Positions 1,471 through 46,620 of a stretch of DNA of 53,460 bases are shown here, piece by piece; the first letter of the stretch is position 1; each line of letters opens with the position of its first letter. The position numbers and the translations under genes were made by a program. The notes beneath the pieces were generated by a model. The model made no database searches and was not told the origin of the DNA. It saw only the letters and a list, made by a program, of their open reading frames with translations. The stretch is from positions 1 through 53,460 of the forward strand of contig JADFIY010000001.1 of assembly GCA_022566415.1 (NCBI GenBank), in the 5' to 3' direction. Origin of the DNA: Acidobacteriota bacterium (GTDB lineage: Bacteria; Actinomycetota; Acidimicrobiia; Spongiisociales; UBA5794).

Positions 1471-1516
1471 GCGGACGATTCTAGAGAGAGGCCCGGATAA
1501 GGCCGATGTTTAGAAA

Positions 1517-1569
1517 TTCCCGGTTCCCAGTTCCCAGACTTGGGGCTTGCGACTTGCGGCTTGCAATTC
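1517..1569 (-). repeat. Phased heptamer array between the gyrA stop and the DUF3566 gene start
   Basis: Plus-strand reading is TTCCCGG TTCCCAG TTCCCAG ACTTGGG GCTTGCG ACTTGCG GCTTGCA, seven units in one register. In gene orientation this is (NCGCAAG)x4 then (CTGGGAA)x3, the same composite as 36358-36429. Confidence 0.75.
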
Positions 1570-3993
1570 TCAGTCTCCGTTCTTCGGCACCAAGGCAGCG
1601 GCCGACAACGTGGCGCCATCCTCCAGGTTCATCACCTTGACGCCGGTCGACTCTCGTTTCTGCCGACTGATGTCGCTGACCGCCTGCCGGATGACGATCC
1701 CATCGGATGAGATCATGAATACTTCGTCGTCAGCGGTGACGGCTCTGGCCGCGACCAGGCTCCCTCTCACCTTGGTCAGCTTCATCGCCTTGACTCCGAA
1801 CCCGCCTCGCCTCTGACGCCGGAAATGCTCCAAGTTGGTCCGTTTGGCGTATCCGCCTGAGGTCATCAGCAGGATCTCGCTTCCCTCTTCGGCTGTGGCG
1901 GCGGCGACGACCTCGTCGCCTTCCCTCAGTTTGATCCCCCTCACCCCTTGGGAGGCCCGACCCATCGGGCGAGCGTCCTTCTCCGAGAATCGGATCCCCT
2001 TACCGCTCTTGGTGAACATGAGCAAGTCGTCCTCGCCACTCGTTGCTCTGACGGCAACGACCTCATCGTCGTCTTGGAGCTTGATCGCCACCAAGACTTG
2101 GTTCCTCGAGTCGTAGTCGGTGAACTTGGATTTCTTTACTTGCCCCTTCTTGGTGAACATCACCAAATGACGATGCGTCTCGTAGTCGCGGGTGTCGATC
2201 ACTGCTTCGATGACTTCGTCGCCATCCATCGGAAGGACCGATTGGATCAGCACTCCCTTGGCATTCCTGTCCTTGCGCGGGATCTCATGTGCTCGGACCC
2301 GATACACCTTCCCGCGGTTCGTGAAGAAGAGGAGGTAGGCATGGGCTGACGTGTGCAGCACGTGTTCGACGACGTCGTCCTCACGCAACGCCGCCCCGCG
2401 GATCCCGCGTCCACCCCTCCCCTGCGTCCGATACGTCGTGGCGAGGACCGACTTGACGTAGCCCGCTGCGGATACGGTCACCACGAGCTCTTCGTCTGCA
2501 ATCAGATCCTCCAGGGAAGCCTCCCCGGTGTCCGGGATGATCCGGCTCCTGCGGGCATCCCCGAACTTGTCGCGGATAGCGTTGAGCTCCTCGCCGATCA
2601 GCGCCCGACGTTTCTCCTCGCTCCCGAGTAGAGCCTTCAGCTCGGTGATGAGTCCCTGAAGCTGCTCGTGCTCTTCGCGCAGCTTGCCTGTTTCCAGCGC
2701 AGTGAGGCGACGCAGTGGCATGTCGAGGATGTGTGCTGCCTGGATTTCGCTGAACTCGAAGCGCTCCCTCAGGGCCGCTTTGGCCGCGCCTACGTCCTCG
2801 GAAGCCTTGATGATCTCGATCACCTCATCGATGTGATCGAGAGCGATCAGCAGCCCTTCGACGATGTGGGAACGTGCTTCGTTTTGCGCTAGGCGGAAGC
2901 GGCTGCGTCGTTCGATCACCTCCAGCTGATGATCGACGTAGTAATGAACCAGTTCGCTGAGGTTCAGCGTCCTTGGCACAGAATCGACGAGGGCGACCTG
3001 GTTGACCGAAAAGTTCTCCTCGAGCTGTGTTCCCTTGAATAGCTGGTTGAGTACGACCTGCGGATTCGCGTCCTTCTTCAACTCGAACACCAGCCGGGTC
3101 CCGTCGCGATCGGATTCGTCGCGAAGATCGGAGATCCCGGTGATCGTCTTCTTTCTCACCAGCTCGGCGGTCTTCTCCATGATGCGATCACGCGACACCT
3201 GATACGGGATCTCGGTGGCGACGATCGCTGTGCGGTTTCGTTTCGTTTCGACAACGTCGGTCACCGCTCGCATCTTCACCGAGCCGCGGCCGGTCGCCAG
3301 CGCGTCCTTTACCCCGTTGACACCGACGATGTAGGCGCCGGTGGGAAAGTCGGGGCCCTTGACGAACTCGGCCAGATCGTCGACGGTGGCGTCCGAATGG
3401 TCGAGCGCGTAGAGGATTGCGTCGACGACCTCGGTCAGGTTGTGCGGGGGGATGTTGGTGGCCATACCGACGGCGATGCCGGTCGAACCGTTGACGAGGA
3501 GGTTGGGGAACCGGGCCGGCATCACCACCGGTTCGTCACGCTCCCCTGAGTAGTTTGGGGTCCAGTCCACTGTGTCTTCGCCGATGCCCTCCAACAAGTG
3601 GGCAGCGAGTGGAGCCATCCTCGCCTCGGTGTAACGCATCGCAGCCGGCGGGTCATCAACGGTGCCGAAGTTCCCCTGCGGATCGATGAGCGGGTAGCGC
3701 ATCGAGAAGTCCTGAGCGAGCCGGACCATGGCGTCATACACCGCTTCCGGCGAGTGTGGGTGGTACCAACCGACGACGTCACCTATCACCCGCGCCGACT
3801 TGCGGTACGGAGTGCCGGATCGGATCCCCGCGTCATGCATCGCATACAGGATTCTGCGATGCACCGGCTTCAACCCATCGCGCACGTCGGGAAGCGCCCG
3901 GGACACGATCACCGACATCGCGTATTCGAGGAACGAGTCCTCCATCTCGCGTGTGATGTCGATCTGGGAAACTTGTGGTCTATCGGTCATCAT
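1570..3993 (-). CDS. gyrA: DNA gyrase subunit A
   Basis: 807 aa. The N-terminus [35 protein letters not shown] and the C-terminal beta-pinwheel repeats fit GyrA. It lies immediately downstream of gyrB. Confidence 0.98.
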
Positions 3994-24260: not shown

Positions 24261-24600
24261 GCACCGATAATTGACCGGTCTTCTCGACAAAGGTTGACCA
24301 TCCTCTCCCGCTCCTGGCTATGGCCCGCTCGTGCCACGGCTCCGCAAATGGTCTTACCAAAACAGACCGGACGGCGCACTGTCTACGGAGCGTCATTTTT
24401 CCCGCTCTTGCCGCTTCGCGGCGGGGGCCGCTCGGGCCACGGCTCCGCAAATGGTCTTACCAAAACAGACCGGACGGCGCACTGTTTGCGGAGCGTCATT
24501 TTTCCCGCTCTTGCCGCTTCGCGGCGGGGCCGCTCGGGCCACGGCTCCGCAAATGGTCTTACCAAAACAGACCGGACGGCGCACTGTTTGCGGAGCCTCT
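24261..24600 (+). repeat. Hairpin-repeat family, locus 3 (leader + 3 units, period 102-103 nt)
   Basis: CCACGGCTCCGCAAA starts at 24334, 24437 and 24539. Units 2 and 3 are essentially identical. It fills the pilT-rnhA spacer. Confidence 0.92.
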
Positions 24601-24641: not shown

Positions 24642-25238
24642 ATGGCCGATTTCACCTGCGAGAGCTGCGGGACGACGTTTTCGCTTCCCGAGCGAGTGCT
24701 CGACCGATATCCGGGATGGACCCCACGGTTGTGTCAATCATGTCGCGATGAGGGTGGAGCGGCATCCACCACCGTCGCAACCGATGGTGATCCCGACACC
24801 GGTGTGTTCACCGATGGGGCGTGTGCCGGCAACCCCGGTCCCGGGGGGTGGGGGGCGGTATACGTCGTCGACGGGCAGATCATCGATGAGGCGCATGGAT
24901 TCGATCCCGACACCACCAACAACCGGATGGAGCTGTTTGCCCTGATCGAGGGCCTCAAGCTGGTCCCTGACGGCACGCCGGTGACGGTGTACTCGGATTC
25001 GGACCTTGCGGTCAAAACCATCAACGAGTGGGCGAGCGCCTGGGAAGAGCGCGGCTGGCAGCGAAAGAGAGCCGGGCCAGACGGTTCCAAGGTTCCGAAG
25101 AACCTGGACCTGGTCAAGAGCGCCTACCGAGCGTACGGTGATCGCCCCGAGGTCGAACTGGTCTGGATCAAGGGTCACGCCAACTACACATGGAACGAGT
25201 ACGCAGACGCCCTGGCAAACAAGTGGAGAAAAGATTGA
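24642..25238 (+). CDS. rnhA: Ribonuclease HI with an N-terminal 4-Cys zinc-ribbon-like extension
   Basis: RNase H core (TDGACAGNPGPGGWG, NNRMEL, YSDSDL, GHANYTWNEYAD) preceded by FTCESCG...LCQSC. Start at ATG 24642; the upstream part of the track ORF is repeat DNA. Confidence 0.88.
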   Translation: MADFTCESCGTTFSLPERVLDRYPGWTPRLCQSCRDEGGAASTTVATDGDPDTGVFTDGACAGNPGPGGWGAVYVVDGQIIDEAHGFDPDTTNNRMELFALIEGLKLVPDGTPVTVYSDSDLAVKTINEWASAWEERGWQRKRAGPDGSKVPKNLDLVKSAYRAYGDRPEVELVWIKGHANYTWNEYADALANKWRKD

Positions 25239-25278
25239 GTCGGAAGTCGCGAGTAGCGAGTAGCGAGTCGCGAGTCGC
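25237..25278 (+). repeat. Six phased heptamers occupying the whole rnhA-cca spacer
   Basis: GAGTCGG AAGTCGC GAGTAGC GAGTAGC GAGTCGC GAGTCGC. The run goes from inside the TGA stop (25236-25238) to the ATG at 25279. Confidence 0.85.
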
Positions 25279-35565: not shown

Positions 35566-36357
35566 ATGCGGCGCATGGGATTCGGGGATCTGGCCACACG
35601 CCCCCTCTACCGCCTTTACGAGGGGCACCTGCTCTCCGGACTCGACCGGAGCAAGCTGCCTCAGCACATCGGGGTGATCCACGACGGCCACCGCAGATAC
35701 GCCAGGAGCGAAGGCCTGCCCGACTACGCGGCGTCGTACCGGGTCGGGATGGCCAAGTTCATCGAGTTCCTGCAATGGACCGAGGACCTCGAAATCCCCA
35801 CCGTTACCTGCTGGCTCCTATCGAAGGAGAACCTGGAGCGCCCCGACGCGGAGCTGGTTCCCTACTACGAGGTGCTCGAGGAGCTGTTCGAGGAGATTCC
35901 AGCCGCTCTGGCGGCGCACGACGTTGGGGTTGGCTTCATCGGGAGCCTCGACCTATTGCCGCCCGATCTCGTCGCCGAGGCAAAGACGCTGGAAGAACGG
36001 ATGCCGGACGGCGAACGACGGCTGACGATCGCACTGGCGTATGGGGGCCGCCAGGAGATCGTCGATGCGGTGAAAGACCTTGTTGGCACTTTGGCCGACG
36101 AAGGCATGCCGGCCGACCAGATCGTGGAACGCATCGACGCCGACGGCATCGGGGCGAACCTGTACACGGCGGGGCTCCCCGACCCGGATTTGGTGATTCG
36201 AACCTCAGGAGAGGCACGGCTTTCGGGGTTTCTGCTGTGGCAGGCCGCCTACGCCGAATACGCCTTTGTCGACGTGTACTGGCCCGCCTTTCGCCACGTC
36301 GATTTCCTGCGGGCCTTGCGGGATTTCACCCGCAGGAACCGCCGATACGGGAAATAG
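35566..36357 (+). CDS. uppS: Isoprenyl (Z-prenyl/undecaprenyl) diphosphate synthase
   Basis: HIGVIHDGHRRYA, IRTSGEARLSGFLLWQAAYAE and RRYG. Start at ATG 35566. Confidence 0.9.
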   Translation: MRRMGFGDLATRPLYRLYEGHLLSGLDRSKLPQHIGVIHDGHRRYARSEGLPDYAASYRVGMAKFIEFLQWTEDLEIPTVTCWLLSKENLERPDAELVPYYEVLEELFEEIPAALAAHDVGVGFIGSLDLLPPDLVAEAKTLEERMPDGERRLTIALAYGGRQEIVDAVKDLVGTLADEGMPADQIVERIDADGIGANLYTAGLPDPDLVIRTSGEARLSGFLLWQAAYAEYAFVDVYWPAFRHVDFLRALRDFTRRNRRYGK

Positions 36358-36429
36358 TCGCAAGTCGCAAGTCAGAACAGCTGGGAACCGGGAACTGGGG
36401 ACTGGGAACTTGAGACTGGGAACTTGGCC
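36358..36429 (+). repeat. Composite heptamer array (TCGCAAG x2, then CTGGGAA-type x7) starting at the uppS stop codon
   Basis: TCGCAAG TCGCAAG 36358-36371. Then CTGGGAA CCGGGAA CTGGGGA CTGGGAA CTTGAGA CTGGGAA CTTGGCC 36381-36429. It contains GGGaaccGGGaactGGGGactGGG 36383-36406. Confidence 0.85.
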
Positions 36430-36433
36430 TCGC

Positions 36434-37117
36434 CTATTTCGTCCTTGCATCCTTGGGCAGATGCTCTCGGTCGTTGAAGGTACGCAGCGACCAGGCAAAC
36501 CCCCCGGCGATCGGGATGGCTCGCATCCTGGCAAATGAGGCATGGTAGAGGATGAAACGCTCCCACTCCCAGGGCGTGGGGTCGGCGCCGAGAAGGTATC
36601 CGATGGCGACGGCGTTGGTGCCTCCGTGGGCGACGATCGCAATGCGTTGGTCTGGGTCGTCGACGGTCCACAGGTGCTCTTGCCGGCGATCGGGGTGCAC
36701 TCCGCGTTCGGCTAGCACCGTGGTGAGCGATCGGGTGATCCGGTCGTGGAAGCTGCGAAAGGACTCACCACCCTCCAACCCATCCCACCATTCCTCTGGC
36801 GGACGGTGGCGGGCCTCGGCGAAGATGCGCTGCACGGTCTCTTCGAGTTCGCCTGACCAATCCGGCATCTTGATCTCGATGATGTCGTCGACGGTCTTGA
36901 TGGATAAGCCGGTTTTGGCGGCGATCGGGGCTGCGGTCTCTTGCGACCGTGCTGCCGGGGACACGATGAGCTCGCTGAGCGGCCGCTTGTCGCGGACGAG
37001 GCGCGCCGCGGCCAGATCCGCCTGCCGTCTCCCCAACTCTGTCAGGTGCGGGTCGGTTTGCGATAGGCCGTCGACGGACCAGGCGGGCTGGCCGTGACGA
37101 ATGAAGAGAAGCTCCAT
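36434..37117 (-). CDS. Histidine phosphatase (phosphoglycerate mutase-like) family protein
   Basis: MELLFIRHGQP with the RHG motif, and a later HGGT motif. A GTG 37147 start is also possible. Confidence 0.8.
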   Translation of the reverse strand: MELLFIRHGQPAWSVDGLSQTDPHLTELGRRQADLAAARLVRDKRPLSELIVSPAARSQETAAPIAAKTGLSIKTVDDIIEIKMPDWSGELEETVQRIFAEARHRPPEEWWDGLEGGESFRSFHDRITRSLTTVLAERGVHPDRRQEHLWTVDDPDQRIAIVAHGGTNAVAIGYLLGADPTPWEWERFILYHASFARMRAIPIAGGFAWSLRTFNDREHLPKDARTK

Positions 37118-37355
37118 GTGAGGGAAAAGATAGATTGCTTGGGACACTTCGGGTGCTTGTACCGGCCGCTAGTTATCGGCGGTCTGGCTGGCGGCCGGAG
37201 CCGGGCAACTGGCGACTTTCTTACTCCGGACGAACCGAGGGCCGCCTTGCGGCGGCCTCGGCTCGGGCTAGACGGGAGGTAGGAAGGCATCCTGTCTGAT
37301 TAACGTATCGACTGACCCACAACCGTTCTTGAGCGACTTTCGAGATTTTTTTGTG

Positions 37356-42436: not shown

Positions 42437-42883
42437 ATGGCAACCCGACTGCTGGCGCTGGTTTTCGTGGCGGCCACCGTTGTCGCGTGCACTGGATCGT
42501 CGGCGCCCACCCTGGCGGGTTTGACTTCAACCACCATCTCCATCGACAACAACGAGCTCACCGTGGCCGTTGCCGATACCCCGCAGGCTCGCGGCCGGGG
42601 GTTGATGGGCATCACCGACCTCGGTGAGTTCGACGGCATGCTGTTCGTGTTCGATACCGACGTCGAAACCGGGTTCTGGATGAAGGACACGCTGATCCCG
42701 CTCGACATTGCCTTCTTCGATGCCGACGGGCTGGCCGTGGACCGGCTGCGCATGGAGCCATGCACCGCCGACCCGTGCCCGACGTACAACGCGGCGGGTC
42801 CGTACCGGTTCGCCGTCGAAGCCCTTGCTGGTGACCTGAGCTTTGTCGGTGAAGGTTCGGTGTTGGCTCTGCTAGATGAGTAG
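42437..42883 (+). CDS. DUF192-family lipoprotein
   Basis: Lipobox VVAC, then GLMGITDLGEFDGMLFVF...WMKDTLIPLDIAF, typical of DUF192. Start at ATG 42437. Confidence 0.8.
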   Translation: MATRLLALVFVAATVVACTGSSAPTLAGLTSTTISIDNNELTVAVADTPQARGRGLMGITDLGEFDGMLFVFDTDVETGFWMKDTLIPLDIAFFDADGLAVDRLRMEPCTADPCPTYNAAGPYRFAVEALAGDLSFVGEGSVLALLDE

Positions 42884-42960
42884 CGAAATAGCGAAGTAGC
42901 CCAGTAGCCCAGTAGCGAAGGAAGACACTGATCTACTGATCTACTGATCTACTGGATGTA
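42881..42960 (+). repeat. Ten phased octamers starting with the DUF192 stop codon
   Basis: TAGCGAAA TAGCGAAG TAGCCCAG TAGCCCAG TAGCGAAG GAAGACAC TGATCTAC TGATCTAC TGATCTAC TGGATGTA, a single 8-nt register over 80 nt. Confidence 0.88.
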
Positions 42961-46280: not shown

Positions 46281-46620
46281 GCGCACGATAGGTGACCGGT
46301 CGTCTCGATATATGTACAGCGATTTTGCCCGCTCTTGCCGCTTCGCGCCCGCCCGGGCCCCGGCTCCACAAATGACCTCACCGACACGCGGACCTGATCG
46401 CTCCGTATTTGCGGAGCGCCATTTTTCCGCTCTTGGCTACGGCCCGTTCGGGCCACGGCTTCGTAAATTGGCCTCGCTGACAGAGACCGGGTCGCGCCGT
46501 ATTTTGCGGAGCGCCATTTTTCCGCTCTTGCTGTTTCGCAGCGGGCCGCTCGGGCCCCGGCTCCGCAAAATTGGCCTCGCCGACAAGAAGCTGGATCGCG
46601 CCGTATTTTGCGGAGCCTCC
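46281..46620 (+). repeat. Hairpin-repeat family, locus 5 (leader + 3 diverged units, periods 95 and 102 nt)
   Basis: Leader GCGCACGATAGGTGACCGGTCGTCTCGATA at 46281. The 5' arms are at 46362, 46457 and 46559. The 3' arms TTTGCGGAGC are at 46408, 46503 and 46607. Confidence 0.9.

Follow-up and report, generated by a model that had tools for sequence, protein, structure and literature searches.

The window analysed here is a 53,460-nt stretch of an Acidimicrobiia genome (GenBank assembly GCA_022566415.1, contig JADFIY010000001.1, positions 1 to 53,460), and the subject of this work is a pair of short tandem repeat clusters that follow two of its genes, an uppS-like isoprenyl transferase gene and gyrA. 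The host genome (G000) is a metagenome-assembled genome (MAG) of 2.57 Mb, 64% GC and 92% complete. A sequence-only reading had described the same two heptamer blocks, in the same order, behind both stop codons. Its sequences are present exactly as written, the gene identities were upheld (TIGR00055 passed at 177.8 bits for uppS, GyrA NF004043 at 1110 bits), and at both loci the two blocks do begin at the stop codon and come in identical order. Tandem arrays were called with Tandem Repeats Finder (TRF); A denotes the unit AGTCGCA (TCGCAAG in the other phase) and B the unit AGTTCCC (CTGGGAA on the opposite strand).

At uppS, the A arm (36356 to 36373, plus strand; 2.6 units by TRF) begins inside the stop codon (TAG, 36355 to 36357, plus strand), the A and G of which form, with the next T, the first AGT on the uppS sense strand. 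In the other phase, two copies of TCGCAAG stand directly after the TAG (36358 to 36371), followed by TCAGAACAG (36372 to 36380) and by seven CTGGGAA-like units (36381 to 36429; sequence and TRF), which, read as AGTTCCC-like units on the minus strand, constitute the B arm. The gap between the arms is 9 nt and holds no gene; the short junction AGAACAG (36374 to 36380) is unstranded. The B arm stops 4 nt short of the TAG (minus strand, 36434 to 36436) that ends a convergent gene of the histidine phosphatase family (36434 to 37147, minus strand), and repeats occupy the entire 76-nt spacer. On this other strand the B block reads TAG gcgaggcc AAGTTCC CAGTCTC AAGTTCC CAGTCCC CAGTTCC CGGTTCC CAG. The G-rich strand of the arm is the uppS sense strand, and a GGGGACT unit occurs within the array. 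The position of the uppS stop and the C-terminus of the protein (RRYGK*) are unchanged in relatives with and without arrays, which shows that the stop was not created by the array.

At gyrA (stop codon TGA, 1570 to 1572, minus strand), the A arm abuts the stop (1538 to 1569, minus strand; sequence and TRF). It reads GAATTGC AAGCCGC AAGTCGC AAGCCCC AAGT, is AGT-sense, and corresponds to four (T/C)(T/C/G)GCAAG-like units running from 1569 to 1538. The B arm (1517 to 1537, AGTTCCC-type units on the plus strand; sequence and TRF) follows with zero gap and no gene in between, and on the gyrA sense strand it is CTGGGAA CTGGGAA CCGGGAA, with only three G-tracts. It ends 46 nt upstream of the ATG (1470) of the following gene. 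The non-repeat remainder of the spacer (TTTCTAAACATCGGCCTTATCCGG...CTCTCTAGAATCG, 1471 to 1516, minus strand) is conserved in all compared relatives at 90-98% GyrA identity, in which the arrays vary; this promoter-like part is probably the promoter and 5' untranslated region of the downstream 176-aa gene and lies outside the repeat.

Repeats of this type are abundant in the host genome. Seven is the commonest tandem period found by TRF in G000 (516 arrays), and 443 of these arrays (86%) are intergenic, whereas arrays of periods 6, 9 and 12 are about 90% coding. The two commonest units are AAGTCGC (75 arrays) and AACTGGG (56 arrays); when one mismatch per unit was allowed, 154 A and 113 B arrays were counted. 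Exact (AGTCGCA)3 occurs 59 times, the reversed control not at all. An AGT/ACT core was present in 64% of the intergenic arrays versus 14% expected from random intergenic heptamers, a 4.6-fold enrichment, and the aligned unit logo is AGT-[C/T]-[G/C]-C-[A/C/G]. It is this core, not G-richness, that is common to the approximately 80 unit types of the family, and block A and the reverse of block B (AGTTCCC) are variants of one theme.

Arrays lie close to stop codons and avoid start codons. Compared with random placement within the same spacers, 91 of the 437 flanking 3' ends have an array within 3 nt of the stop (35.7 ± 4.5 expected), and in 24 of these 91 the context is TGA-GT, the A of the stop serving as the first A of AGT. 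Eight arrays were observed at start codons, against 18.5 expected. Orientation follows the gene ends. Of the 103 arrays at most 10 nt from a stop, 96 have AGT on the sense strand of the gene (for A arrays, the forward unit is sense in 58 of 62), compared with 6 of 55 at 31-80 nt from the stop and 5 of 31 located 11-30 nt upstream of starts. When co-directional spacers were divided into quartiles from stop to start, AGT-sense arrays numbered 61/76, 9/33, 7/30 and 1/15. Since the AGT strand points out of the neighbouring gene and into the spacer, two arrays at opposite ends of one spacer are directed towards each other: with gaps of up to 80 nt, 57 facing, 2 back-to-back and 13 same-direction pairs were counted in G000, and in 31 of the 57 facing pairs the arms match. 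The uppS and gyrA loci both show the facing order, (AGTNNNN)n followed by (NNNNACT)m on one strand.

The polarity rule was checked in four further genomes that use other units. AGT-sense arrays were 7/7 within 30 nt of stops and 0/7 upstream of starts in G197 (AGTGGTC), 8/8 within 10 nt of stops and 0/5 at 31-80 nt in G004 (AGTCGCG), 15/17 and 0/6 at the same distances in G006 (mixed units), and 2/2 within 10 nt of stops in G016 (AGTCGCG/AGTTGCT). Replication-strand bias was rejected as the cause of the orientation: local GC skew is equal for both orientations, and the rule holds for both genes of convergent pairs (41/46).

The rule also assigns the blocks to genes. In 18 of the 19 B arrays that lie no more than 10 nt from a stop, the C-rich strand is the sense strand of that gene, and on this basis the B arm in the uppS spacer belongs to the phosphatase gene. 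Each of the two convergent genes thus has its own post-stop array, block A for uppS and block B for the phosphatase gene. The orientation of the gyrA B arm is equally typical, since 23 of 29 B arrays lying 31-80 nt upstream of starts are G-rich on the sense strand. The genome search proposed in the sequence-only reading did yield further copies, with A lying within 40 nt of B in 21 cases in G000, but B adjoins A in both orientations (8 cases as at uppS and gyrA, 13 inverted), and among facing pairs the A/B combination was observed 6 times versus 5.2 expected from arm frequencies. We therefore rejected A+B as a dedicated unit. The composite is not specific to uppS and gyrA; at each locus it consists of two independent arrays from the family of 443 intergenic heptamer arrays, and the family rule together with the abundance of both units explains why the loci agree in the order and orientation of the blocks and in where these lie with respect to the stop. 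Confidence in the descriptive part of this work is high.

Because the two arms at uppS and at gyrA are heterologous (AGTCGCA versus AGTTCCC), they do not pair into a hairpin, and no pairing between them was predicted. Spacer RNAs of both strands were less structured than shuffled sequences (z = +0.6 to +1.8), no Rfam family was found in the spacers, and region 36200 to 36600 yielded no terminator-like site and no consensus terminator or promoter. With folds no better than those of shuffled sequences and no terminator consensus, a hairpin or intrinsic terminator at the two loci was rejected. The lack of hairpin terminators and of structure in both spacers would suit a functional gene-end element, in which the post-stop array, as (AGUNNNN)n RNA or as DNA, provides a phased protein platform acting as polar insulator, roadblock, terminator substitute or stabilizer of the mRNA 3' end and shielding each gene from transcription that enters from outside. 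HutP offers the nearest parallel, as a protein that recognizes UAG-N4 triplets spaced 7 nt apart. The strictly gene-end-dependent orientation of the arrays and their start inside the stop codon also fit such an element, as do the density of arrays, highest in convergent spacers (2.36 per kb versus 0.89 in divergent ones), and the AGT core, which predicts orientation better than base composition does (19 to 3 where the two conflict). However, only about 7% of stops carry an array, most genera of the same family have none, arrays are gained, lost and replaced between genomes of 95-97% identity with the flanks unchanged, and no candidate binder was found apart from the putative PF05635 protein described below. 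We consider a gene-end function of this kind improbable.

Base composition could also be relevant in its own right, if unstructured RNA with C>G right after stop codons served as Rho-loading (rut-like) tracts. The sense strand of post-stop arrays contains 30% C and 25% G, the arrays are unstructured, and units without the AGT core favour C>G by 21 to 4. Where the two predictors conflict, however, it is the C>G rule that loses to the AGT core in the 19 to 3 comparison, and the main post-stop unit of G004, AGTCGCG, is G>C, yet AGT-sense in all eight cases. Rho loading is, in our view, scarcely credible as an explanation.

In line with the sequence-only reading, block B could be a G-quadruplex (G4)-forming 3' untranslated region element, possibly combined with a sponge of GGA triplets for an RNA-binding protein, specific to uppS and gyrA. 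The G3+N1-7 x4 pattern that it reported on the uppS strand is present (GGGaaccGGGaactGGGGactGGG, 36383 to 36406), the uppS B block having four or more phased G3+ tracts, and the B unit is involved in 32 of the 144 G4 motifs of G000. The closely similar units GGGGACT and GGGAATC form G4s in vitro (PMC4692102). The repeats described in that work prefer four units, whereas here no such preference was seen: most B arrays have two or three units (52, 38, 18, 4 and 1 arrays with 2, 3, 4, 5 and 8 units), phased runs of 3, 4 and 5 G-tracts number 218, 24 and 6 with no peak at four, and the gyrA copy stops at three tracts. Beside stops the strand is wrong as well. The G-rich strand is the sense strand in the one remaining case of the 19 B arrays within 10 nt of a stop and in 4 of 13 at 11-30 nt, and the direction of the uppS B block is the one that suits the phosphatase gene. 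Block A and most other units have no G-runs, and block B is missing at both loci in close relatives. At the family level, G4 formation as a selected feature was therefore rejected.

The sponge idea fared no better. CsrA (PF02599) was not found in the 92%-complete G000, in which positive controls were detected, and since the spacer RNAs are less structured than shuffled sequences and have no Rfam match, their GGA triplets lack the hairpin-loop setting that characterizes a sponge RNA. Taken as a whole, the G4 and sponge interpretation is very unlikely. The uppS motif may fold in vitro, but nothing points to G4 as the reason for the sequence; the motif would rather be a by-product of a B arm oriented towards the phosphatase gene. 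For annotators this means caution, as a repeat family can incidentally give rise to G4 or 'sponge' motifs in genomes of this kind.

Comparison with relatives showed rapid change in the arrays. In the gyrA spacer, the relative with 98% GyrA identity has A with different substitutions and two B units, the 95% relative has three A units and no B, the 90% relative is degenerate, and relatives at 74% have no arrays. Two of these close relatives were deposited under the names 'Acidobacteria bacterium' (L003, JACZST010000022.1, 98%) and 'Kiloniellales' (L001, CAXMPL010000201.1, 95%); these names conflict with the Acidimicrobiia placement of the other relatives, and the records are likely mislabelled MAG bins. 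In the uppS spacer, G005 (97% UppS identity) has three A units followed by AGTGACC AGTCCGC in the same direction and no B, and G006 (88%) retains A, AAGTCAGAAC at the same position and a GGGATCT/GGGAACT block, with differing unit counts; the spacer is ordinary in G004, G002, G001 and other genera. None of the relatives compared has a gene in either spacer. The sequence-only reading had held that absence of the composite from close relatives with otherwise identical spacers would imply neutral slippage. This was seen in part: B is missing after gyrA (95%) and after uppS (97%) with the rest of the spacer conserved.

The same behaviour was found beyond the two loci. In 24 orthologous spacers compared between G000 and G003 (approximately 96% identity), clean 7- and 14-nt indels, homogenization of units and one replacement of a unit family were observed. 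In the replaced case (G000, contig C244, 5393-5502), ACGTAAT arrays give way in G003 to AGTCGTC and GGACTGA arrays, with 77 extra bases. Between close relatives the arrays change by microsatellite-type slippage of whole units, with occasional replacement of the unit family. Of the seven genomes in the genus, only four contain exact (AGTCGCA)3, and among 200 others sampled across the class none does. The generic pattern (AGTN4)4AGT abounds in five members of the genus. Most sister genera lack it, and several further families of the order have it, each in the form of a unit peculiar to that family.

The arrays are also physically linked to one gene family. PF05635 ('23S rRNA intervening-sequence protein') is a four-helix bundle related to Avd, the accessory protein of diversity-generating retroelements (DGRs; PMC10053308). 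Six PF05635 genes, mutually 39-68% identical, were found in G000: C101:1281-1652(-), C59:20653-21033(+), C4:7104-7493(+), C82:27763-28116(-), C48:5064-5471(-) and C197:9727-10161(-). All six are bracketed by (AGTNNNN)n on the 5' side and (NNNNACT)n on the 3' side, the arms being usually inverted copies of one unit, with a different unit family for each gene, and the 5' arm often begins in the stop codon of the upstream gene. A GGGTTCCAAC-like motif was noticed approximately 25-30 nt before the start codon of several of these genes. Among all genes modelled in G000, only 28 of 1952 (1.4%) have arrays on both sides; the models come from a crude gene finder, which overlooked five of the six PF05635 genes. 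The four modelled genes with inward arrays proved to be ordinary housekeeping genes, and other cargo between inward arms was thus rejected. In ten other genomes, representing seven genera, 11 of 11 PF05635 loci are bracketed in the same way with lineage-specific units, some of which lack AGT (AGCTGCA in G002, AGATCCC in G056, GGCAATT in G016).

The two features also tend to occur together across genomes. Among 41 relatives, a PF05635 gene was present in 11 of 14 array-bearing and in 3 of 27 array-free genomes (Fisher p = 3e-5), and at the genus level in 5 of 7 versus 3 of 26 (p = 0.004). Because of the relatedness of the genomes, the counts are not independent and the p-values overstate the case. 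One of the three exceptions with a gene that were counted as array-free, G056, carries arrays of a non-AGT unit. An empty and a filled state of the same site can be compared between a LuxR-type regulator gene and secA, where G000, G001, G004, G005 and G006 have a cassette (in G000, C101:1204-1716) and G002 has a gene-less facing arm pair of 60 nt made of its own unit (AGCTCCA / GCTTGNN; C59:430-507, L113). The G002 member of that PF05635 clade sits at another locus, between AGCTGCA arms. A site occupied by a cassette in sister genomes can thus carry a gene-less facing pair instead. The repeat family is thus tied, physically and phyletically, to Avd-like four-helix-bundle genes.

These observations bear on the simplest alternative, that the arrays are pure slippage microsatellites: 7-nt units would be unusually prone to slippage, selection would remove copies damaging to coding sequence, promoters or RNA, and PF05635 genes would lie in repeat-rich spacers by coincidence or preferential tolerance. 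Whole-unit indels between close relatives, steadily falling copy-number distributions, lineage-specific units and the failure to find a mobility enzyme (reverse transcriptase or transposase) agree with it, and a polymerase footprint as the basis for slippage-prone 7-nt units has been proposed, an idea attributed to Mrazek (PMC4692102). But slippage leaves unexplained the enriched AGT core, the near-absolute polarity with its facing architecture (57 to 2) and the patchy phyletic distribution that tracks PF05635, and coincidence fits poorly with 17 of 17 PF05635 genes lying inside inward arms when 1.4% of genes have arrays on both sides. We regard slippage alone as unlikely.

On balance, we favour the interpretation that the uppS and gyrA composites are facing heptamer-arm pairs of a genome-wide polar repeat family and are likely empty or solo cassette arm pairs; we put it somewhat above even. 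Gene-less pairs such as these would be arms of the repeat/cassette system, tolerated where coding sequence, promoters and ribosome-binding sites are undisturbed, and would have no function specific to uppS or gyrA. Most likely, then, the repeats at the two loci are a passive or selfish spacer element. Confidence in the derivation of arm pairs from PF05635 cassettes is moderate, and several points, besides the non-independence of the co-distribution counts, speak against it. An origin of the arms in cassettes and an action of the PF05635 protein on them are both putative. A search of the gene-less pairs of G000 for PF05635 remnants found none, and these pairs are approximately tenfold more numerous than cassettes. 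A pseudogene candidate at C37 was rejected, its weak match being to a membrane protein. In a tree of the 17 PF05635 proteins the closest paralogs share AGTA arms, but across genomes arm units do not follow protein clades. Three array-bearing MAGs (G013, G197, G224) gave no PF05635 match, and no transposase or reverse transcriptase was associated with the arms or cassettes. Finally, the arrays may act locally, for example by serving as a platform for a protein or by influencing how 3' ends are formed.

A further step, which we regard as possible and put forward only tentatively, is that the arrays are the arms, and the gene-less pairs the docking or empty sites, of a mobile cassette without transposase. 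Its sole gene would encode an Avd-like protein that recognizes phased AGT-N4 in DNA or RNA and drives both the spread and the polarity of the arrays. If so, the repeats after uppS and gyrA would be footprints of a cassette element, and heptamer repeats of other bacteria (cyanobacterial short tandemly repeated repetitive (STRR) sequences, the G-rich heptamers of Xanthomonas and Nostoc, and TAACTGA repeats) and the '23S rRNA intervening-sequence protein' would both be manifestations of a single element. An origin from a reverse transcriptase, a DGR or a telomerase-like enzyme was rejected, as no RVT_1 domain was found in G000; without a reverse transcriptase, the PF05635 system here is not a DGR. 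To our knowledge, the excess of heptamer simple sequence repeats (SSRs) in bacteria was noticed decades ago and has gone unexplained, and no function is known for PF05635 proteins other than in DGRs. The physical link between the two provides a concrete, testable partner for each. By itself the locus that drew attention is ordinary, another heptamer microsatellite pair and not a regulator of uppS or gyrA.

Dispersed tandem heptamers have been described before in other bacteria. The term STRR and the heptamer nature of these repeats are confirmed in published papers. Their units, reportedly given by Mazel et al. in 1990, are said to be CCCCAGT, TTGGTCA and CAACAGT. Like them, the arrays studied here are dispersed and belong to several unit families per genome, and an (A/G)GT core is shared with the reported units, AGTTCCC being one position away from AGTCCCC, a rotation of STRR1. 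Unlike the STRR sequences, they occur in another phylum and in a high-GC genome, and as far as we know descriptions of STRR sequences mention neither polarity nor facing pairs nor an association with cassettes. REP/BIME elements (repetitive extragenic palindromes and bacterial interspersed mosaic elements, including REPINs, REP doublets forming hairpins) are proteobacterial, imperfect palindromes of about 35 nt tied to RAYT transposases (REP-associated tyrosine transposases). They too are short, abundant extragenic repeats at gene 3' ends, often in inverted pairs, but here the repeats are tandem heptamers and the units are not palindromic. With 23S rRNA intervening sequences and free-standing PF05635 genes, the six cassettes share a small four-helix-bundle open reading frame (ORF) within inverted repeats; unlike the intervening sequences, the uppS and gyrA loci are gene-less, and none of the PF05635 copies found in this work is located within an rRNA gene.

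Among published repeats, the nearest class is that of the G-rich heptameric SSRs of Xanthomonas (GGGAATC) and Nostoc PCC 7120 (GGGGA(C/T)T), the function of which is given as unknown (Rehm et al. 2015; PMC4692102). These repeats formed G4s in vitro, showed a preference for four units, and carried the G-rich sequence on the coding strand in the 50 bp after a stop (PMC4692102). The arrays described here resemble them in including 7-nt tandem units with a G3-4 tract and in being dispersed and mostly non-coding, under-represented between divergent genes, and located within 50 bp of ORF ends, where some overlap stops and orientation is set by the nearest ORF end. Length and sequence likewise vary at the same loci between close relatives, and the Nostoc unit GGGGACT itself occurs inside the uppS array. 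In contrast to the published repeats, no four-unit preference was found here, it is the C-rich strand that lies on the coding strand beside stops, the G-rich unit is only one of the approximately 80 types sharing the AGT core, and the host belongs to Acidimicrobiia, an actinobacterial class. A link to PF05635 cassettes is absent from the description in PMC4692102, and our literature search, which was not exhaustive, found no paper linking PF05635 to heptamer repeats.

Intergenic TAACTGA direct repeats have been reported in Beggiatoaceae, some Cyanobacteria and some Bacteroidetes (MacGregor 2015; PMC4679880). They are comparable to the present arrays in being direct heptamer repeats that are abundant between genes, each set containing 2-6 copies, in their patchy phyletic distribution, which suggests horizontal spread with no evident mechanism, and in a unit that contains ACT (AGT on the other strand). 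They differ in consisting of a single unit located mostly a few nucleotides upstream of starts, whereas the arrays here have many units, abut stops and avoid starts.

Other repeats in the window deserve mention. The spacer at 25237-25278, between co-directional genes, consists of six GAGTCGC-type heptamers only, reaching from the stop codon to the next ATG; in G003 its units differ from those of G000 by substitutions, with equal length. At 42881-42954, one spacer contains period-8 arrays (AGTAGCGA/AGTAGCCC, ACTGATCT), which shows that the phenomenon is not strictly confined to 7-nt units. At 24325-24596 and 46347-46616, a tandem repeat of approximately 95-103 bp is present in 2.7 copies each, with 97% and 78% matches, respectively. 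Its unit holds an internal inverted repeat (GGCTCCGCAAA ... TTTGCGGAGCG) and represents a separate family, unrelated to the heptamers.

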